Below, one piece after another: positions 16,311 to 64,000 of a DNA stretch of 64,000 bases. Where the stretch lies: assembly GCA_964571235.1 (NCBI GenBank), contig CAZNAI010000003.1:656700-720699 (forward strand), given 5' to 3'. Below the pieces are notes generated by a model. It had not been told where the DNA came from. It did not search any database and saw only the letters and a list, made by a program, of their open reading frames with translations. The first letter of the stretch is position 1, and each line of letters opens with the position of its first letter. Source of the DNA: an uncultured Ignavibacteriales bacterium. Its GTDB lineage: Bacteria; Zixibacteria; MSB-5A5; GN15; FEB-12. The translations under genes were made by a program, and so were the position numbers.

Positions 16311-16325
16311 AATCCAACGCAAGAG

Positions 16326-16429
16326 GGCAAATTGAGCGCGGCGGACAGGAATGTCCGCCACGCACAAATACTCCGATGGGTGATAGAGCGAAATTTGAGC
16401 GCGGCGGACAAGAATGTCCGCCTCGCACA
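16326..16429. repeat. two direct copies of the RAYT-cognate hairpin (63-nt period)
   Basis: aaattgagcgcggcggacaggaatgtccgccacgcaca at 16328-16366. aaatttgagcgcggcggacaagaatgtccgcctcgcaca at 16391-16429. Confidence 0.85.
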
Positions 16430-16592
16430 TGCAGTCCGCACTTTCTCATCCCGTCGCAGGCGGTGGGGCACCCGGCAGGATCGGTCGCAACCGCCAAATT
16501 CTGTTCAGCCGTTACACATACCCCAAGTCCAGTGGCGATACGGAGTTAGGGACGCGCCCGCTCGGACAGTTTCGCGCTTTGCATTTAAGGCG

Positions 16593-19837: not shown

Positions 19838-19897
19838 GCGCTCCTCTGCTGGGCGGGTTCGTCTTTGAGCTCGCTAAAGTGACATTAGATTGAAGTG

Positions 19898-19931
19898 CCG
19901 TCAGGCCTCCCGGCCTGACGGCTTTTTTTTG
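19898..19931 (+). terminator. rho-independent terminator after secF (family-A-like hairpin)
   Basis: gccgtcaggcc-tccc-ggcctgacggc followed by an 8-T run. Confidence 0.8.
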
Positions 19932-19961
19932 TAAATAATGCCGCTGTCAGGGCGGGTCTTG

Positions 19962-20090
19962 TAGGTCGGGTTCCGATGATCCGCCGCGACGCGTGCGGAT
20001 CGAGAAACCCGACATCTTTTTCCCCCTGTCCAAGATGTCGGGTTTCTCACTCGTCCGGTCAGGCCGGACTCGCTCAGAACCCGACCTACA
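19962..20090. repeat. REPIN-like inverted doublet of family C REPs
   Basis: Left unit GTAGGTCGGGTTC...GAAACCCGACATC (19962-20017). Right unit GATGTCGGGTTTC...GAACCCGACCTAC (20035-20090). Each unit encloses a different inner hairpin. Confidence 0.8.
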
Positions 20091-20168
20091 TTTCTTCTGC
20101 TGTCAGTGCCGGAGCACTGACAGCACGACATGCTCGGAATCTGCTGACCCGATGCCGATATTAGACTC

Positions 20169-36232: not shown

Positions 36233-36679
36233 TCACTTCGGTTTTACTATCGGTGAATTGAGCGGGGCTCCCACGGCTATGTCACACCGATGGTTTGGCT
36301 GTCCGTGCGGTGGATTCATCCCCGGAGCAGTCGTGGTATTGGCCGTCTGGGCAGGGATATTCTGTTGCGGCGAATTTGGTAGCGCTTGTACAGTCCCCGG
36401 CGGTGAACTGAGCGGCGCTCCCACGGCTATATCACAACGATGGTTTGGCTGTCCGTGCGGTGGATTCATGCCCGGCGCGGTAGCTGATTCGACGGCAGTT
36501 TCATAAGGATTCATCACAGGGGAGGGCTGAACCGCAAGTGACTCAGACGATGCGGGGGCAGACTGTGTCATGCCGGCGTCGGACTCTGAACCCTTGCTCG
36601 CAGGGGTATCCGATGATTCCTTGCAGGCCATCGCAAAGACCATTAAGAGAATGAGAATCGTCAGGCTCATGCGCTTCAC
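36233..36679 (-). CDS. lipoprotein with duplicated NPPHGQPNHRCDIAVGAPL motif
   Basis: The GTG at 36679 lies 6 nt after AGGAGG. Lipobox in MKRMSLTILILLMVFAMAC. Two near-identical ~74-nt segments at 36252-36325 and 36402-36475. Confidence 0.7.
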   Translation of the reverse strand: MKRMSLTILILLMVFAMACKESSDTPASKGSESDAGMTQSAPASSESLAVQPSPVMNPYETAVESATAPGMNPPHGQPNHRCDIAVGAPLSSPPGTVQALPNSPQQNIPAQTANTTTAPGMNPPHGQPNHRCDIAVGAPLNSPIVKPK

Positions 36680-41859: not shown

Positions 41860-41879
41860 AGAGGATATTGAGCTCTGTT

Positions 41880-41942
41880 GTAGGTCGAAATCCCTTGCCG
41901 CGACAGCGGTCCCGCCAACGGCGGGATGTTTCGACATCTTCC
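41880..41942 (+). repeat. GTAG-type REP-like element (family D, long form)
   Basis: GTAGGTCGAAATCCCTTG ... TGTTTCGACATCTTC. Its termini match the element at 3019-3087, but the inner hairpins differ. Confidence 0.75.
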
Positions 41943-41948
41943 TCAATT

Positions 41949-41998
41949 TCAAATTGACTTCATGTCCAAACTGACTTCATGTCAAAATTGACTTCAGG
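41949..41998 (+). repeat. 17-nt tandem repeat x3
   Basis: tcaaattgacttcatg / tccaaactgacttcatg / tcaaaattgacttcagg. Confidence 0.8.
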
Positions 41999-42017
41999 CT
42001 GAGCCTGTCGAAGCCAC

Positions 42018-42320
42018 GTAGGTCGGGTTGCCAGCCCCGTTTACGGGGCGCAGCTACCCGACAATGTCGCGAGGCAAAGCATAGTAGGTCGGGTTGGCAA
42101 GTTACCCGCGTGAGCGGGGAACGCAGGCTACCCGACACTTTCTAAAACCGCAGATGTCGGGTAGACAAATCGTGTCGTCTCCGACGATTCGATTTGCCAA
42201 CCCGACCAACGAAGACTCGTCGTGGTGTCGGGCGTCCTCACCCGACACCGATTGCGGTCAGGTGGGGACGCCTGACCGCACGATATCGAATACGGCAGGA
42301 GCACAGGGCTCCTGCCCTAC
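42018..42320. repeat. BIME-like cluster of at least six REP-type hairpin units
   Basis: Family C units at 42018-42063, 42084-42137 and 42153-42210 (inverted). Short hairpin at 42224-42249. Family A hairpin at 42255-42279. GTAGGGCAGGAGCC hairpin at 42294-42320 (minus strand). Confidence 0.8.
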
Positions 42321-46313: not shown

Positions 46314-46372
46314 TTCGTTGAATCGCGTCTCGACTACGCTCGACGCGTCGCACCCATGATGGTGTATGGAAT

Positions 46373-46410
46373 GAAGATGTCGAAACCGCAGGGGTTTCGA
46401 CCTACAGAAG
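46373..46410 (-). repeat. family D REP (short form)
   Basis: gaagatgtcgaaaccgcaggggtttcgacctacagaag. Further copies at 57966 and 58442. Confidence 0.75.
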
Positions 46411-46423
46411 ACAAAGAGTGAAA

Positions 46424-46545
46424 GTAGGTCGGGTTCTGAGAGAGTTCGCCGTGGCGAACGAGCGAAAAACCCGACATCGATGTGATTGAAAAATTAGTGT
46501 CGGGTTTCTTGTCCCGCCAAAGCGGGACGACGGAACCCGACCTAC
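46424..46545. repeat. REPIN-like inverted doublet of family C REPs
   Basis: GTAGGTCGGGTTC...AAAACCCGACATC followed by GTGTCGGGTTTC...GGAACCCGACCTAC. Confidence 0.8.
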
Positions 46546-53473: not shown

Positions 53474-53563
53474 AGGGACTCCGCTCTAAAGTGTTGATAT
53501 CATCTTAACACCAGCAAGTAGCAATTGTTTCGAAGGTGGTAAGGTCGATAGTCTAACTAAGAA

Positions 53564-53767
53564 ACGCCCTTCGACTCCGCTCAGGGCGACGTTCCGATCA
53601 GCGCAACATCAGGTTGGTATGCGAGTACGCTTTGGCAACCATGTTTTTCTCGTGTGCTGGGAAACTGAATAGTGTCAAACAGCACATTCGATGGGCGCGT
53701 TAGCGTCGGGCTGAGCGGAGTCGAAGCCCGTTCTCATTGGCGTCAGGCCAGGAGGCCTGACGCCACG
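53564..53767. repeat. MITE-like element (family E) plus family A hairpin
   Basis: Left arm 53564-53602 and right arm 53687-53735 contain a 16-bp perfect inverted repeat, cttcgactccgctcag/ctgagcggagtcgaag. Hairpin ggcgtcaggccaggaggcctgacgcc lies at 53738-53767. Confidence 0.8.
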
Positions 53768-57056: not shown

Positions 57057-57164
57057 TGGGACGGGCGCGATGATCAGGGGCGCGAGGTGGCCAGCGGGGT
57101 GTATCTGTATCGCCTGACCGCAGGCGGCGTGACGCAAGAGAAGAAGATGGTGTTGGTGCGGTAG
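57057..57164 (+). pseudogene. orphan C-terminal FlgD-Ig/T9SS-type sorting-domain fragment
   Basis: Translates to WDGRDDQGREVASGVYLYRLTAGGVTQEKKMVLVR then a stop. An in-frame stop lies immediately upstream and there is no start codon. Confidence 0.6.
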
Positions 57165-57201
57165 CCAGCCATATGGCTGGACCTTGGGGCTTCGCCGCTT
57201 T
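57161..57201 (+). repeat. GTAG plus 16-nt perfect palindrome (family H)
   Basis: GTAGCCAGCCATATGGCTGGaccttggggcttcgccgct. A near-identical module sits inside pth at 45278-45312. Confidence 0.75.
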
Positions 57202-57408
57202 GTATTCAGAGTAAGTGCGTCATTGGATACGGGTTGATGATCCAAGGCGTCGTGTCTCGTCTCCGCTCGACACGACGGTGGAGGGGGAGACGATTGGTAG
57301 ACGGTTGCCATACGCTGTATTCGCTCGGATACTGAAAGATGATTTTCCTCTTAACAATGTCAAACCCATGTTGAGATTGATCGCTTGGTCACTAATCGAA
57401 ACGGCCTT

Positions 57409-57491
57409 CTTCGTCGCCTCGAGCGGAGTCGAGAGGAGACGCGGTGGATATCAGTCAGACACGCCGTGTCTCGTCTCCGCTCGACACGACG
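57409..57491 (+). repeat. family F repeat, left copy flanking the GIY-YIG gene
   Basis: ttcgtcgcctcgagcggagtcgagagg...cgtgtctcgtctccgctcgacacgacg. A partial third copy lies at 57246-57280. Confidence 0.85.
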
Positions 57492-57546
57492 AATAAACGG
57501 AATGTGATTTAATCAACAGCGCCCTAGACACTATGTTTATGACCTC

Positions 57547-57849
57547 GTGAACCCATGCGTTTACACACTCCGTTGTGCTGATAACAGTCTGTACACAGGC
57601 GCAACGAGCAAATTGGATCGCCGACTTGTGCAACATGCGTCAGGCGAGGTAAAGGGATTTACTTCTTCTCGACTCCCCATCGTTCTTGTGTTCATGGCGC
57701 ACTTCCCGACCATGTATGAGGCTGGTGTCGCGGAAAAAAAAGTGAAACGCTGGTCACGAGCGAAGAAGGAAGCACTGATTCGCGGCGACGAGAAGGCATT
57801 ACACGAACTTGCTTCGTGCAAAAACTCATCGCATTTCTCGAAAAAGTAG
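57547..57849 (+). CDS. GIY-YIG nuclease family protein (UPF0213-like)
   Basis: 100 aa: VYTLRCADNSLYTGATSKLDRRLVQHASG ... EKKVKRWSRAKKEALI. Confidence 0.85.
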   Translation: MNPCVYTLRCADNSLYTGATSKLDRRLVQHASGEVKGFTSSRLPIVLVFMAHFPTMYEAGVAEKKVKRWSRAKKEALIRGDEKALHELASCKNSSHFSKK

Positions 57850-57866
57850 AATCTCATGGCCCGCTT

Positions 57867-57948
57867 TTCGTCGCCTCGAGCGGAGTCGAGAGGTGACGCG
57901 CCGGATATCAGTCAAACACGCTGTGTCTCGTCTCCGCTCGACACGACG
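57867..57948 (+). repeat. family F repeat, right copy flanking the GIY-YIG gene
   Basis: Same orientation as 57409-57491, with about five mismatches by eye over ~82 nt. Confidence 0.85.
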
Positions 57949-57965
57949 GTGAACGAGCAACAGAG

Positions 57966-57999
57966 CATGTCGAACCCGCAGGGGTTTCGATTTACAAAG
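57966..57999 (-). repeat. family D REP (short form)
   Basis: catgtcgaacccgcaggggtttcgatttacaaag. Confidence 0.7.
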
Positions 58000-58441
58000 A
58001 CTGGTCTCTGAACCGGGACAATGGAAGTGGTCGAATTGTGGATGGTACGAGGGAAGAAGAGATGGACCACGGGAAATTGACGCGATTGAGATTTGAGGGT
58101 AGCGGTCGGATTAAGGGATCCCACAGCAAGCTGTGGGGCACCGAAGAGAACCAATGCGCGAATGCCTATCAATTTTCATACAAATCTCATGTAGTCAACG
58201 AATCGGCAAGTTCTGGTATGAAGACCTCGATACACAACTCGCCTATGTTACGAAATCCTGCCGTGCAATTTTACTACAAGATCTATGCGACGACGTCACA
58301 ATCCCGAAAATACCCGAATCATCACAACCGCCACTGCAATAACCAATTGCGATCAAAGAAAACAATTCGTGAAATGCAAAAGTGTACAAACGAAGCCAAA
58401 AAGAAACCCACCATAATTGGTGATCCACATAGAAAAAGAAA

Positions 58442-58475
58442 AGTGTCGAAACCGCAGGGGTATAGACCTACAAAG
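58442..58475 (-). repeat. family D REP (short form, degenerate)
   Basis: agtgtcgaaaccgcaggggtatagacctacaaag. Confidence 0.7.
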
Positions 58476-58496
58476 GAGAGCTACACAAACAAAGAG

Positions 58497-58751
58497 ACGC
58501 CCTTCGACTCCGCTCAGGGCGACGTTCCGATCAGCTCGACCGTGGTTAGCGCGTGGGTGCAGTTCTGCTACTCTTCGTTCGGTAGTAGCATCGACGAAAG
58601 GCCTTCGTCAAATCAAGAATTGGATGAGCGCGTCAGCGTCGGGCTGAGCGGAGTCGAAGCCCGTTTCTCTTGATCATCATGTTACAAAAAAAGCGTCAGG
58701 TGGGGGCACCTGACGCCACGTATACGACCCTTCGACAGGCTCAGGGTGAAG
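58497..58751. repeat. MITE-like element (family E), family A hairpin and G module
   Basis: Left arm 58497-58535 (38-39 nt identical to 53564-53602). Right arm 58620-58669. Hairpin gcgtcaggtgggggcacctgacgc at 58693-58720. cccttcgacaggctcagggtgaag at 58728-58751. Confidence 0.8.
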
Positions 58752-58772
58752 TCAAATTTGTTCGACGCGTTA

Positions 58773-61428: not shown

Positions 61429-61764
61429 TCAGGCTTTGAAGATCAGGAAGATTGAGCAGAGAACGGCTGTTACCGGCAGGGCGGCGGCAAATGAGACCGG
61501 TAGCAATAGAGTTGCAAGAAAGGCCAGCGCTATTGCAGGAAGCACGAGATACTTGATGGTAGCGATAGCCAGGCGAACGAGTTGAGTAAGTAGATAGAAA
61601 ACGAGCACGCCGCCGATAATCAGCCCGGCGATCAGGCCGTTATTACCGAAATGATCGATAATCCAGCTTTTGAGCGACAGGAGCGGTCCGGCGCCCAAGT
61701 CGAAGAACTGACTACACCACTGGCCAATACTTGAAAATGTTGAACTCAGATCAGAAAGGGGCAT
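61429..61764 (-). CDS. hypothetical membrane protein
   Basis: 111 aa. GGAGGA lies upstream of the ATG. 2-3 TM helices. Confidence 0.5.
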   Translation of the reverse strand: MPLSDLSSTFSSIGQWCSQFFDLGAGPLLSLKSWIIDHFGNNGLIAGLIIGGVLVFYLLTQLVRLAIATIKYLVLPAIALAFLATLLLPVSFAAALPVTAVLCSIFLIFKA

Positions 61765-61984
61765 CGGTGTCTTCCTCCAGCGGTTCGATAGTCAGCGACG
61801 ACTCTCCGACCCGCGAGAGGCCAACCATTCGGCGGGTGAGAAAGTTTTGCGTGGTGATCCAGCGATGGGAGACCTCCATGATTTCCTGCTGGTCGACATC
61901 GGAGACCCAGTCGAGAATCACCTGATCGATTGTCCGGTCGTGTAAAACGACATCATCCATCGTGAGCACAAATTTCACTTTCAT
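61751..61984 (-). CDS. hypothetical small acidic protein
   Basis: 77 aa. Overlaps the next ORF by 14 nt. Promoter-like TTGCTG-N18-TATAGT at 62054-62083 (minus strand). Confidence 0.45.
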   Translation of the reverse strand: MKVKFVLTMDDVVLHDRTIDQVILDWVSDVDQQEIMEVSHRWITTQNFLTRRMVGLSRVGESSLTIEPLEEDTDAPF

Positions 61985-62214
61985 GACACCTGTCCCGCCT
62001 TCTGCGGTTTCGTTGTTTCACCACAGAAAGTGCAACGGGGGTGCCGCTATGAGACTATACCACTGGGCGTCGAGAGCCAGCAAGGTAAGTCGTGAATTAC
62101 CAAGGGGGATTTCCACAATCTGTTCAGCGCGCGAGCAGACGATGAATTCACGCTGTTTCAGAGTGAATCGAAATCGACAGAAGAGTATTGGAAATCGCCG
62201 TTAGGTGGTAGGCG

Positions 62215-62248
62215 AAAATCAAAACCCGGCGGTGGCAGGCCGCCGGGT
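62215..62248 (-). terminator. rho-independent terminator
   Basis: The minus strand reads acccggcgg-cctgcca-ccgccgggt followed by ttttgatttt. Confidence 0.6.
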
Positions 62249-62605
62249 GTGTCGTATTGCGTATTGATCACGGGTCTTTCGACCCGGACCCCCATTTGCG
62301 GCTGATACCGAAATCGGATCCCCTCAATCCGACAACGAGACGTCGGTATCAGCCAAATCTCGCGCAAGATTGCCTGGCTTGCGCGGTCTTCCTGTCGGGT
62401 CAAGTTCCCGCCCGTTATCGCCGTTGCGATCTCGGGCGAGTTTCTCCCATAGTGATCCCTCCCTGGCTAACAGGTTTACGCCCACGACAGGCAGTAAGAG
62501 ATTCGCAAGATGGGGGGATGCTTGCACCTACAGCACAACACTAAATCGCGCTGTTCAAGTGAGGATGAATCTTGTCTTCAGATAATTGAAATGCAGTCTG
62601 GCTGA
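62215..62605 (-). ncRNA. candidate structured RNA of about 390 nt (unclassified)
   Basis: Bounded by a sigma70-like promoter and an intrinsic terminator. Contains 12-bp (ggctgataccga/tcggtatcagcc), 7-bp (gcgcaag/cttgcgc), nested cgcccg/cgggcg and GNRA-capped (gggtc-gaaa-gaccc) stems. No ORF with a credible start. Confidence 0.35.
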
Positions 62606-62609
62606 GCGT

Positions 62610-62638
62610 ACCATACGCAATCTACTGTGTGATGTCAA
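62610..62638 (-). promoter_or_regulatory. sigma70-like promoter
   Basis: The minus strand reads TTGACA (62633-62638), 17-nt spacer, TATGGT (62610-62615). Confidence 0.5.
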
Positions 62639-62680
62639 GCGAAATATGAGAGGGTGCGACAGTCAATTGCGACAACATCT

Positions 62681-63193
62681 TCATTTCACTTTTCGATAGC
62701 CATATCCGATTCGCTTGGTAGATCCGTTCATGGGCCCTTCAATCCAGGCAAAAAGGGAGTCGACGCTGATCGGTTGGTAACAGACTTTGGTGGGGAAATC
62801 ATGGGTGGGATTTTCAAAGAGAAATCCGGCGCTATCAGCCACTGTCAGCTTGAAGAAGACTTTTGACTTGTTGTGTGGGACATCGGCGACGAAAAATAGC
62901 CCGCTGTCAGTCTGTAACAATTGTGCGCACTCGGTGATAATGGTGTCGCTGGCCGTTACTTTGAAGGCGATACCATCCAGTGTGAGAGAGTCTTTGGCCG
63001 TCCAGTGCTCTCCGATTACACTTTTCTTGCCTGCGCCGGTCCATTTCCCCAGTAGCCAATTCAAAGACTTCAAATTAGCGCCGGGCGTTTCGGCGGTAGT
63101 GGCGGCGCCGAGTGACACAATGACAGCGGTGAGGAAGATAGTGGCAGTTTTCTTCGTTTTCATATGCTCCTTTGAGACGGCCTGGTCGGCCAA
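62681..63193 (-). CDS. secreted lipocalin-like protein (DUF6265-like?)
   Basis: 170 aa with a signal peptide. ...LLGKWTG... and ...FENPTHDFPTKVCYQ... resemble that family as I remember it. Confidence 0.55.
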   Translation of the reverse strand: MADQAVSKEHMKTKKTATIFLTAVIVSLGAATTAETPGANLKSLNWLLGKWTGAGKKSVIGEHWTAKDSLTLDGIAFKVTASDTIITECAQLLQTDSGLFFVADVPHNKSKVFFKLTVADSAGFLFENPTHDFPTKVCYQPISVDSLFAWIEGPMNGSTKRIGYGYRKVK

Positions 63194-63229: not shown

Positions 63230-64000
63230 TCAGAAGTTGAGTCCTGCTGAAAAATACCAGCGTTCTCCGCCATGATTGGTTCTGCCGTACCCAAGTTCGA
63301 ACGGGCCTATCGGCGTATCAAGCGAGAGTGCGCCGCCGAATCCCTGTCGGACATTCTTGAGCTTGAGGTTTTCAAATCGAACCGCGATATCGCCGGCGTC
63401 CCACCGGCCGGTGGCATAGAATCCAAGTGGCAGTCTGGCGCGAATTTCCTGATTGACCAGAGTGTATTTGTCGCCGAAAAGGGATTCACCGCGATACCCG
63501 TTGAGCGAAGTCGCCCCGCCGAGATAGAACTTTTCAGACAACGGAAGTGCATCGGCTGACAAGCCGACTGAAAGTTTGAAGTGATAGGTGAAATTCCCGG
63601 CAATGGTGTAGTACGATTCGACTATTGAGTTGAATCGTGTGAAATTCCGGTCGCTCGCCAGGAATTTGGGCGACAGGCGAAGTTGAAACAAGTACCGATT
63701 GCCCGTACTCGGAAATGCGACCCGATCGAATGTCTCAACGTGCGACTCGAAATTGAGCGTGCTGAGGGTGAATTCCTCTTTCGGCACGGCTTTGTCGCGG
63801 TGGTGAACCCGCTCGATGGCGATGCCGCCGGTGATTGTACCGAGCCGTCCGATCTGCTGTCCGGCGTTGAAAGTGGCTCCCCAGCGCGACTCGGTGCGGA
63901 TTCCGAACGGATTTCCAAGGGTGTCATAGGTTGTCCGATCGATTTCCGACCAGCCGGTGCGCACTTGCCCGGTGAGGTAGGTCGACAGGATTCGATTGGC
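63230..64000 (-). CDS. Omp85/BamA-family outer-membrane beta-barrel, C-terminal part (5' end outside the window)
   Basis: The reading frame is open to the window edge. Ends ...GGERWYFSAGLNF with the typical terminal Phe. Alternating beta-strand pattern. Confidence 0.65.
   Translation of the reverse strand, partial: ANRILSTYLTGQVRTGWSEIDRTTYDTLGNPFGIRTESRWGATFNAGQQIGRLGTITGGIAIERVHHRDKAVPKEEFTLSTLNFESHVETFDRVAFPSTGNRYLFQLRLSPKFLASDRNFTRFNSIVESYYTIAGNFTYHFKLSVGLSADALPLSEKFYLGGATSLNGYRGESLFGDKYTLVNQEIRARLPLGFYATGRWDAGDIAVRFENLKLKNVRQGFGGALSLDTPIGPFELGYGRTNHGGERWYFSAGLNF

Follow-up and report, generated by a model that had tools for sequence, protein, structure and literature searches.

The window analysed here, a stretch of 64,000 nucleotides (nt) of contig CAZNAI010000003.1 (positions 656,700 to 720,699) from the Zixibacteria genome assembly GCA_964571235.1, very probably contains a real gene for a structured non-coding RNA (ncRNA) on its minus strand, at window positions 62215–62603. 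By sequence comparison the RNA is a previously undescribed family, and its gene reads as a transcription unit of its own, equipped with an intrinsic terminator and a near-consensus sigma-70 promoter. The family has an unusual hallmark in an invariant ribosome-binding site (RBS) and start codon behind which there is no conserved peptide. We favour, at a probability of roughly 0.55, the reading that the RNA is a stand-alone riboregulator whose fold would be coupled to the docking of the 30S subunit or 70S ribosome on a pseudo-mRNA site, and which would be linked to the sigma-54 operon lying directly downstream.

A search of one literature library returned no earlier description of this RNA and no publication mentioning ncRNAs of Zixibacteria, an uncultured phylum without described RNA biology in which a clear, covariation-supported RNA structure can now be placed. 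In keeping with a preliminary description of the window sequence, which had recognised no known RNA family here, none of the 4227 covariance models (CMs) of Rfam 15 (among them RNase P, SRP, 6S, riboswitches, OLE, GOLLD, ROOL and raiA) matched the whole window or 20 homologous loci at the gathering threshold, and the same models run in E-value mode on 61900–62750 gave only terminator-like chance matches with E-values of 0.3–5. ARAGORN reported neither a tRNA nor a transfer-messenger RNA (tmRNA) in the window; tmRNA was rejected as a candidate on this result, on the intrinsic terminator that forms the 3′ end of the RNA, and on the lack of conservation of the open reading frame (ORF) behind its AUG. 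The definition of the family, which comprises coordinates and motifs together with about 40 members and two covariance models, is ready for Rfam submission.

A promoter-to-terminator unit in about 40 lineages

The preliminary description had placed a TTGACA-N17-TATGGT promoter at 62610–62638 and a 9-bp GC-rich hairpin terminator at 62215–62248, both on the minus strand, and a consensus scan recovers each of them: the sigma-70-type promoter of the RNA gene matches at 10 of 12 positions, and the intrinsic terminator consists of ACCCGGCGG-CCUGCCA-CCGCCGGGU plus UUUGAUUUU, that is, a 9-bp hairpin with eight GC pairs (62248–62224) running into TTTGATTTTC. With the transcription start placed 7 nt past the -10 hexamer, at A62603, and the 3′ end placed in the U-tract, the predicted transcript is about 389 nt long (62215–62603). 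Conservation among the clade-A relatives starts at this predicted +1 (AGCCAGACUGCA). The stretch of 401 nt between promoter and terminator has a minimum free energy of -158.7 kcal/mol, compared with -132.7 ± 6.4 kcal/mol for dinucleotide shuffles (z = -4.09), and none of 100 shuffles folded as well. Near-identical contigs of the locus are present in several metagenomes, and a strain that is 95% identical differs by 7 substitutions in the roughly 388 nt of the RNA body, as against about 25 in the 100 or so nt just past the terminator, a disparity that indicates purifying selection on the RNA body; both of the substitutions located in stems yield G-U pairs.

More distant relatives were found by anchoring on the 77-amino-acid (aa) protein encoded by the first gene of the downstream operon, which gave 80 metagenomic loci, and iterative nhmmer searches aligned approximately 600–700 nt upstream of the 77-aa gene in 64 of them. 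(An exact pattern scan of the JGI metagenomes with AGGGAGGGATCNCTATGGGAGA had 0 matches because that version of the motif is specific to the window's clade.) About 40 distinct Zixibacteria lineages have kept the RNA unit, and in every one of them it shares its strand with the 77-aa operon and directly precedes it. The homologous promoter-to-terminator units are 378–522 nt long, and each ends in a GC-rich hairpin followed by a U-tract. At their other end, a TTGAC(A)-N16-20-TAnnnT promoter lies 147–249 nt upstream of the GGAGG motif discussed below in 37 of 41 distinct loci and is matched in five additional close relatives. This conservation of promoter and terminator supports the original proposal of a stand-alone unit for a structured RNA of about 390 nt.

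The RNA is also present in those five relatives, in an AT-rich lineage (L058) and in one with an insertion of a repeat element (L081), and a species-level genome scan led to a relative with 75% protein identity (L014), in whose RNA multiple compensatory changes leave the nested stem, the 12-bp stem and the terminator intact. The position of the RNA is syntenic across lineages whose flanking protein is only 60–95% identical. Upstream neighbours vary by lineage (patatin-Omp85, DUF6265 and others), with patatin-Omp85 as the immediate neighbour in at least seven lineages and unrelated genes taking that place elsewhere. The RNA stays by the 77-aa operon in all of these settings, so that it appears linked to the operon and not to the upstream gene. 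As far as sampled, the RNA seems confined to Zixibacteria. Two GTDB representative metagenome-assembled genomes with close homologues (L014 and L015) are labelled 'uncultured Ignavibacteriales bacterium', and other sources assign this gene family to Zixibacteria, which is probably an inconsistency of labelling or binning.

Helices and their covariation

The structure of the RNA was analysed by sub-domains rather than with a full-length covariance model. One model, R1, describes the 3′ domain and was built from four clade-D members; it found 24 loci, in whose alignment 94.6% of cells are paired, as against 73% for shuffles, and 22 of 25 pairs have changed on both sides. When partners were slid by 1–3 columns, pairing in this alignment fell to 30–51%. 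R1 comprises four elements: the short closing helix P_M, the hairpins Pa (CCCC/GGGG) and Pb, and the terminator. The other model, R2, was made from the window's own 3′ half, and its alignment (A10) is 94.7% paired (68% for shuffles) with 28 of 33 pairs changed on both sides; over both alignments, the partner-slide controls brought pairing down to 27–51%. These alignments lean towards structure because they are fitted to the models and some weak matches are included. The unfitted control was A7, in which nine close relatives were aligned plainly with MAFFT and onto which the helices of the window were projected. The helices covary in the covariance-model alignments, and the outer stem of the first of them does so in A7 as well. 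All of the stems listed in the preliminary description, together with its runs of C6 and G5, lie where it had put them.

Immediately 3′ of the invariant AUG is the nested stem H1, CUCGCCCG(AUCGC-AACG-GCGAU)CGGGCGGG (62407–62440), whose outer helix is paired in 90.5% of cells on A7, with both sides changed in 5 of its 7 pairs. Its inner atcgc/gcgat hairpin is not conserved (61%) and is clade-specific. The hairpin H2, CGCGCAAG / CUUGCGCG (62361–62385; gcgcaag/cttgcgc, 7–8 bp), is 87% paired among the nine close relatives, with two pairs changed on both sides, and in L009 an A-to-G change gives a G-U pair. The 12-bp stem H3, GGCUGAUACCGA / UCGGUAUCAGCC (62300–62354, strands 62354–62343 and 62311–62300), has changed on both sides at all 12 of its pairs in A10, and in the 75%-identical relative it reads GACCGGCGCCGG / CCGGCGUCGGUC with 12 of 12 pairs still formed. 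H3 encloses UCGGAU-UGAGGGG-AUCCGA (62332–62314), an inner hairpin that we regard as clade-specific because only 4 rows have it. The Pb hairpin, CGGGUC-GAAA-GACCCG (62271–62286), has changed on both sides at 6 of 6 pairs in A10 and at 8 of 8 in the R1 alignment, and its GAAA loop is not itself conserved. The terminator closes the series: in A10 it is 97% paired, and all 9 of its pairs have changed on both sides. Overall, the 3′ multi-helix domain consists of H2, H3 and Pb in the window, and of P_M, Pa and Pb in most clades.

Several single-stranded or loosely paired motifs accompany these helices. In the 5′ domain, CCUCAC (62559–62564) occupies invariant columns in A7, and most loci have it at comparable distances of -545 to -670 from the 77-aa ATG; a long-range pairing of it with GUGAGG may exist and is at present a candidate. 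The pyrimidine block AUCCCCCCAUCU (62508–62519), conserved over 59 distinct rows, contains the C6 run (62517–62512) that had been suggested to pair with the G5 run (62293–62289) of AUGGGGG (62289–62295). Both runs are there, and the pairing itself is weakly supported: on A7 it is 70% kept, both sides have changed in 2 of its 7 pairs, and one relative is devoid of the G run. In most other clades the equivalent GGGG and an adjacent CCCC form the local hairpin Pa, 4 of whose 4 pairs have changed on both sides; in the window, the only partner of the G5 run is the distant C run. RNAalifold pairs AUCUCU (62497–62502), a candidate anti-Shine-Dalgarno strand, with AGGGAU of the Shine-Dalgarno (SD) region, and on A7 this helix is 68% paired with 0 pairs changed on both sides, that is, without covariation. 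UAUGG (62451–62447) is a further conserved motif. At the 3′ end, CGCAAUACGA (62252–62261) abuts the terminator, is invariant in A7 and is the most conserved of the 3′ motifs; most members carry CCGYARUACGA at 51–58 nt from their 3′ end.

The invariant GGAGG and AUG and their possible meaning

About 140 nt inside the RNA lies the SD-like motif GGAGG (62458–62462), invariant in the family alignment and placed 6–8 nt ahead of an equally invariant AUG. GGAGG-N6-8-AUG is present in all members extracted, and the AT-rich lineage retains AAGGAG-N10-AUG. The arrangement has the form of an RBS, with the SD 5–9 nt ahead of the AUG, and GGAGG is complementary to the canonical 16S anti-SD. What follows the AUG shows no such constancy. 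In the window it opens a mini-ORF (62415–62450, AUG…UAA) for the 11-aa peptide MGETRPRSQRR, of which the AUG is invariant and the peptide is not conserved; across the family the ORF ranges from 1 to 43 codons and encodes unrelated peptides, and no peptide similarity was found for it across clades. In 22 of 41 loci it is at most two codons long, and a stop (UGA or UAA) within two codons of the AUG at this frequency is far above our own estimate of chance.

Because GGAGG, AUG and their spacing are fixed while the surrounding pairs covary, the motif is presumably recognised by an external partner that is itself invariant, the simplest candidate being the ribosome. In the reading that we favour, this partner would be the 16S anti-SD together with the initiator tRNA, the ribosome would dock on the SD-AUG as on a pseudo-mRNA site, and the fold of the RNA would be coupled to docking. 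The reading frame behind the AUG would be a throw-away mini-ORF, as suggested by its length of no more than two codons in about half of the lineages. Taken on its own, engagement of a ribosome at the SD-AUG is tentative, falling somewhat short of an even chance, and we would be similarly cautious about a functional link between the RNA and the neighbouring operon, which is plausible without being probable. A more specific version, in which the RNA would be a phylum-wide, abundantly transcribed pseudo-mRNA docking the ribosome on a frame of one or two codons, we consider quite unlikely; under it, the multi-domain fold could report or modulate translational capacity (or the status of release factors or recycling) and signal to the sigma-54 envelope operon. 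We know of no precedent for a ribosome-sensing ncRNA class of this kind.

Several observations weigh against a ribosome-coupled riboregulator. The transcript is a predicted one, its ends placed from the sequence, and the covariance-model alignments are model-fitted and take in some matches with E-values up to 1. It is the invariance of the motif from which ribosome engagement would be deduced, and the conserved GUGAG/UGA past the AUG, instead of providing a stop codon, could be a motif of the structure. Predictions have the SD mostly paired (probability 0.78), which argues against easy access for ribosomes; this value is barely higher than the 0.72 obtained with shuffled flanks (p = 0.02), and the AUG does not differ (0.52 versus 0.54). 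In thermodynamic models of most members, the SD pairs with pyrimidine blocks that lie upstream of it, and the complementarity between upstream strand and SD-AUG showed no excess over composition-matched shuffles (mean z = +0.1). Sequestration of SD and AUG as a selected trait thus finds no support above what base composition gives, and we make no claim to it. When the RNA was paired with the 5′ region of the 77-aa mRNA by duplexfold, a crude procedure that forces whole-length duplexes, the mean z was 0.02, a value at chance level that carries little information. Finally, the sigma-54 operon occurs with no recognisable RNA in about a dozen lineages for which sufficient upstream sequence is available, so the operon is not strictly dependent on it.

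The main rival to a riboregulator of this kind, which we judge unlikely while taking it seriously, is that the RNA is a cis-acting leader of the 77-aa operon, similar to a riboswitch or attenuator. The sigma-70 promoter would then be constitutive, the 3′ domain with CGCAAUACGA would sense translation of the mini-ORF or else a protein or a ligand, and sensing would set the balance between formation of the terminator and read-through into the operon, in parallel to the sigma-54 promoter. The arrangement speaks for it: in about 40 lineages the RNA precedes the operon on the same strand, at a spacing that stays constant whichever gene lies upstream, and the intrinsic terminator directly follows the conserved structured 3′ domain and CGCAAUACGA, with highly conserved unpaired junction nucleotides right ahead of it, as is typical of riboswitches. 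However, there is no conserved antiterminator, since partners of the terminator's 5′ strand scatter over non-homologous positions when its 3′ strand is removed, and a conserved spacer and a conserved sigma-54 promoter separate terminator and gene. The operon retains that promoter in lineages lacking the RNA, an element of about 430 nt with a duplicated terminator parts the RNA from the operon in L081 and leaves both intact, and Rfam offers no riboswitch match. Alternatively, the RNA may act in trans as a base-pairing small RNA (sRNA), with C/U-rich motifs (CCUCAC, CCCCAUCU and CCUCC-like) as anti-SD seeds and GGAGG-AUG as a decoy that masks them. RsaE-type sRNAs use C-rich seeds that target SD sequences, and the RNA has several conserved pyrimidine-rich blocks, a predicted pairing of these with the SD in most members, and a terminator hairpin and U-tail, preceded by a conserved A/U-rich stretch, at the 3′ end of a predicted independent transcript. 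The intramolecular pairing is nevertheless no better than composition predicts, a decoy needs no invariant AUG at a fixed spacing, the complement of CGCAAUACGA occurs at chance frequency only within the 64-kb window, and 380–520 nt with many covarying helices is far above the typical size of a seed-type sRNA; we therefore hold this alternative to be distinctly improbable.

The presence of a perfect SD-AUG ahead of the 11-aa ORF naturally raises the question of whether the RNA is simply the mRNA of a small protein, be it this Arg-rich peptide or the product of a 67-aa ORF with a GTG start or an 81-aa ORF with a TTG start, all three of which were reported in the preliminary description and do exist. 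We consider this highly unlikely, since the ORF behind the AUG varies from 1 to 43 codons with unrelated sequences and the longer ORFs, which match within clades only, as nucleotide similarity alone predicts, differ between clades in frame, start and position. No ORF was found to be conserved across clades in position, frame or length, none of the ORFs of the region has a Pfam match, the source annotations of the window locus and its relatives call no gene in the gap of about 700 nt, and the family is strewn with indels whose lengths are no multiple of three. Protein-like conservation, originally named among the patterns that would speak against an RNA, is accordingly absent; another of them, stems that do not covary, is refuted by the alignments described above. 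That the region might be a remnant of a repetitive extragenic palindromic (REP) or mobile element, or a set of fortuitous GC-rich hairpins without function, is suggested by the several REP-like palindromic repeat families that the window holds, and is scarcely credible given that no repeat family of the window, REP-like ones included, covers or resembles 62215–62640, that both covariance models find the RNA in single copy in the window, and that it occupies one syntenic position and covaries across lineages.

The sigma-54 operon, other features of the window and known systems

On the minus strand, the genes follow in the order patatin-Omp85, DUF6265 (62681–63163), the RNA, the 77-aa gene (61751–61984), and genes for a 111-aa membrane protein, a zinc-ribbon-like protein and a VanZ-like protein. 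The 77-aa gene is separated from the RNA terminator by about 230 nt that hold a conserved sigma-54 promoter, GGCAC-N5-TTGCA (62031–62045). The sigma-70 promoter that had been assigned to this operon at 62054–62083 fails the scan and is not conserved; the conserved site is the sigma-54 one. Of about 80 loci (L016–L095), nearly all, RNA-less ones included, have GGCAY-N5-TTGCA, the -24/-12 consensus of sigma-54, at 55–75 nt ahead of the 77-aa ATG, and for this reason the operon (77-aa, 111-aa membrane, zinc-ribbon-like, VanZ-like and DUF2807 products) appears to be RpoN-dependent.

The first product of the operon is an ultra-conserved acidic protein with 700 homologues, the best 120 of which are 73–100% identical and, where named, labelled Zixibacteria, and an alignment of 22 sequences contains 37 invariant columns. 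Neither Pfam nor NCBIfam has a matching family, and an AlphaFold model (pLDDT 77; a beta-hairpin, two helices and two strands) has no significant fold match in the PDB. A ribonucleoprotein of the RNA with this protein was considered and seems unlikely, because an acidic protein is an improbable RNA-binding partner.

Upstream of the RNA, a fusion of patatin and Omp85 (about 800–890 aa, PlpD-like; window 63230–64000 and beyond, L001:3547–5934) is the ancestral neighbour in many lineages, as seen in L027, L030, L032, L078, L036, L053 and L024; the window has the DUF6265 gene inserted between the two. Past the terminator (window about 62180–62214, minus strand), many lineages carry an imperfect palindrome, CCCAYAG-N-CTRTGGG, followed by CCCCATAC. 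It lies some 150–170 bp upstream of the sigma-54 promoter, is poorly preserved in the window, and could be a site for an enhancer-binding protein. The insertion in L081 (about -700 to -235 from the 77-aa ATG) comprises around 430 nt rich in CCCACCCGTGGACGGG palindromes, flanked by two near-identical copies of the RNA terminator (CCGGCCGAGAATTCCGC[A/G]AGGGATTCTCGGCTTTTTTTG), and looks like a miniature inverted-repeat transposable element with target duplication.

Elsewhere in the window, REP-like palindromic repeat families such as GTGTCTCGTCTCCGCTCGACACGAC, TGTAGGTCGAAA(C/T)CC and GTCAGGCNNGGANGCCTGAC are found at 57100–58770, 53555–53732, 46314–46545, 41874–42020 and 19895–20092, and the stretch of about 1.7 kb at 57.1–58.8 kb is made up almost wholly of such repeats and contains no convincing ORF. 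Tandem duplications of structured-looking units occur at 36251–36481 (81 nt at 150-nt spacing, 91% identical) and at 16322–16438 (54 nt at 63-nt spacing, 83% identical, with GGCGGACAGGAATGTCCGCC hairpins).

Among known systems, hok-type type I toxin mRNAs resemble the Zixibacteria RNA in being stand-alone folded transcripts of about 400 nt with an occluded RBS and long-range pairings; the Zixibacteria RNA differs in that neither a conserved ORF for a hydrophobic toxin nor a gene for an antisense RNA was seen. The mgtA leader with mgtL, and start-stop or minimal upstream ORFs in general, share with it a strong RBS ahead of a tiny ORF whose peptide is unimportant, in a long structured RNA with a terminator. 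Such leaders are contiguous with the gene they regulate and use alternative (anti)terminator or Rho-site structures, whereas no antiterminator was detected in the Zixibacteria RNA and a separate sigma-54 promoter intervenes. The STAB-SD of the Bacillus cryIIIA mRNA offers a likeness of another kind, as an SD conserved for 30S binding and not for protein production, although it lies near the 5′ end of an mRNA and needs no start codon, and the Zixibacteria motif lies about 140 nt inside an ncRNA with an invariant AUG and spacing. Large orphan ncRNAs (OLE, GOLLD, ROOL, HEARO and the raiA motif) are likewise several hundred nt long with many covarying helices, each in one lineage and a conserved neighbourhood, and were likewise found comparatively with a function that is not evident from sequence. 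The Zixibacteria RNA is set apart from them by the lack of an Rfam 15 match and by its place beside a sigma-54 operon, and we know of no class of the OLE, GOLLD, ROOL, HEARO or raiA type that carries an invariant SD-AUG. Large multi-domain ncRNAs that are conserved across an entire phylum are rare, and those that have been characterised turned out to have unusual biochemistry.

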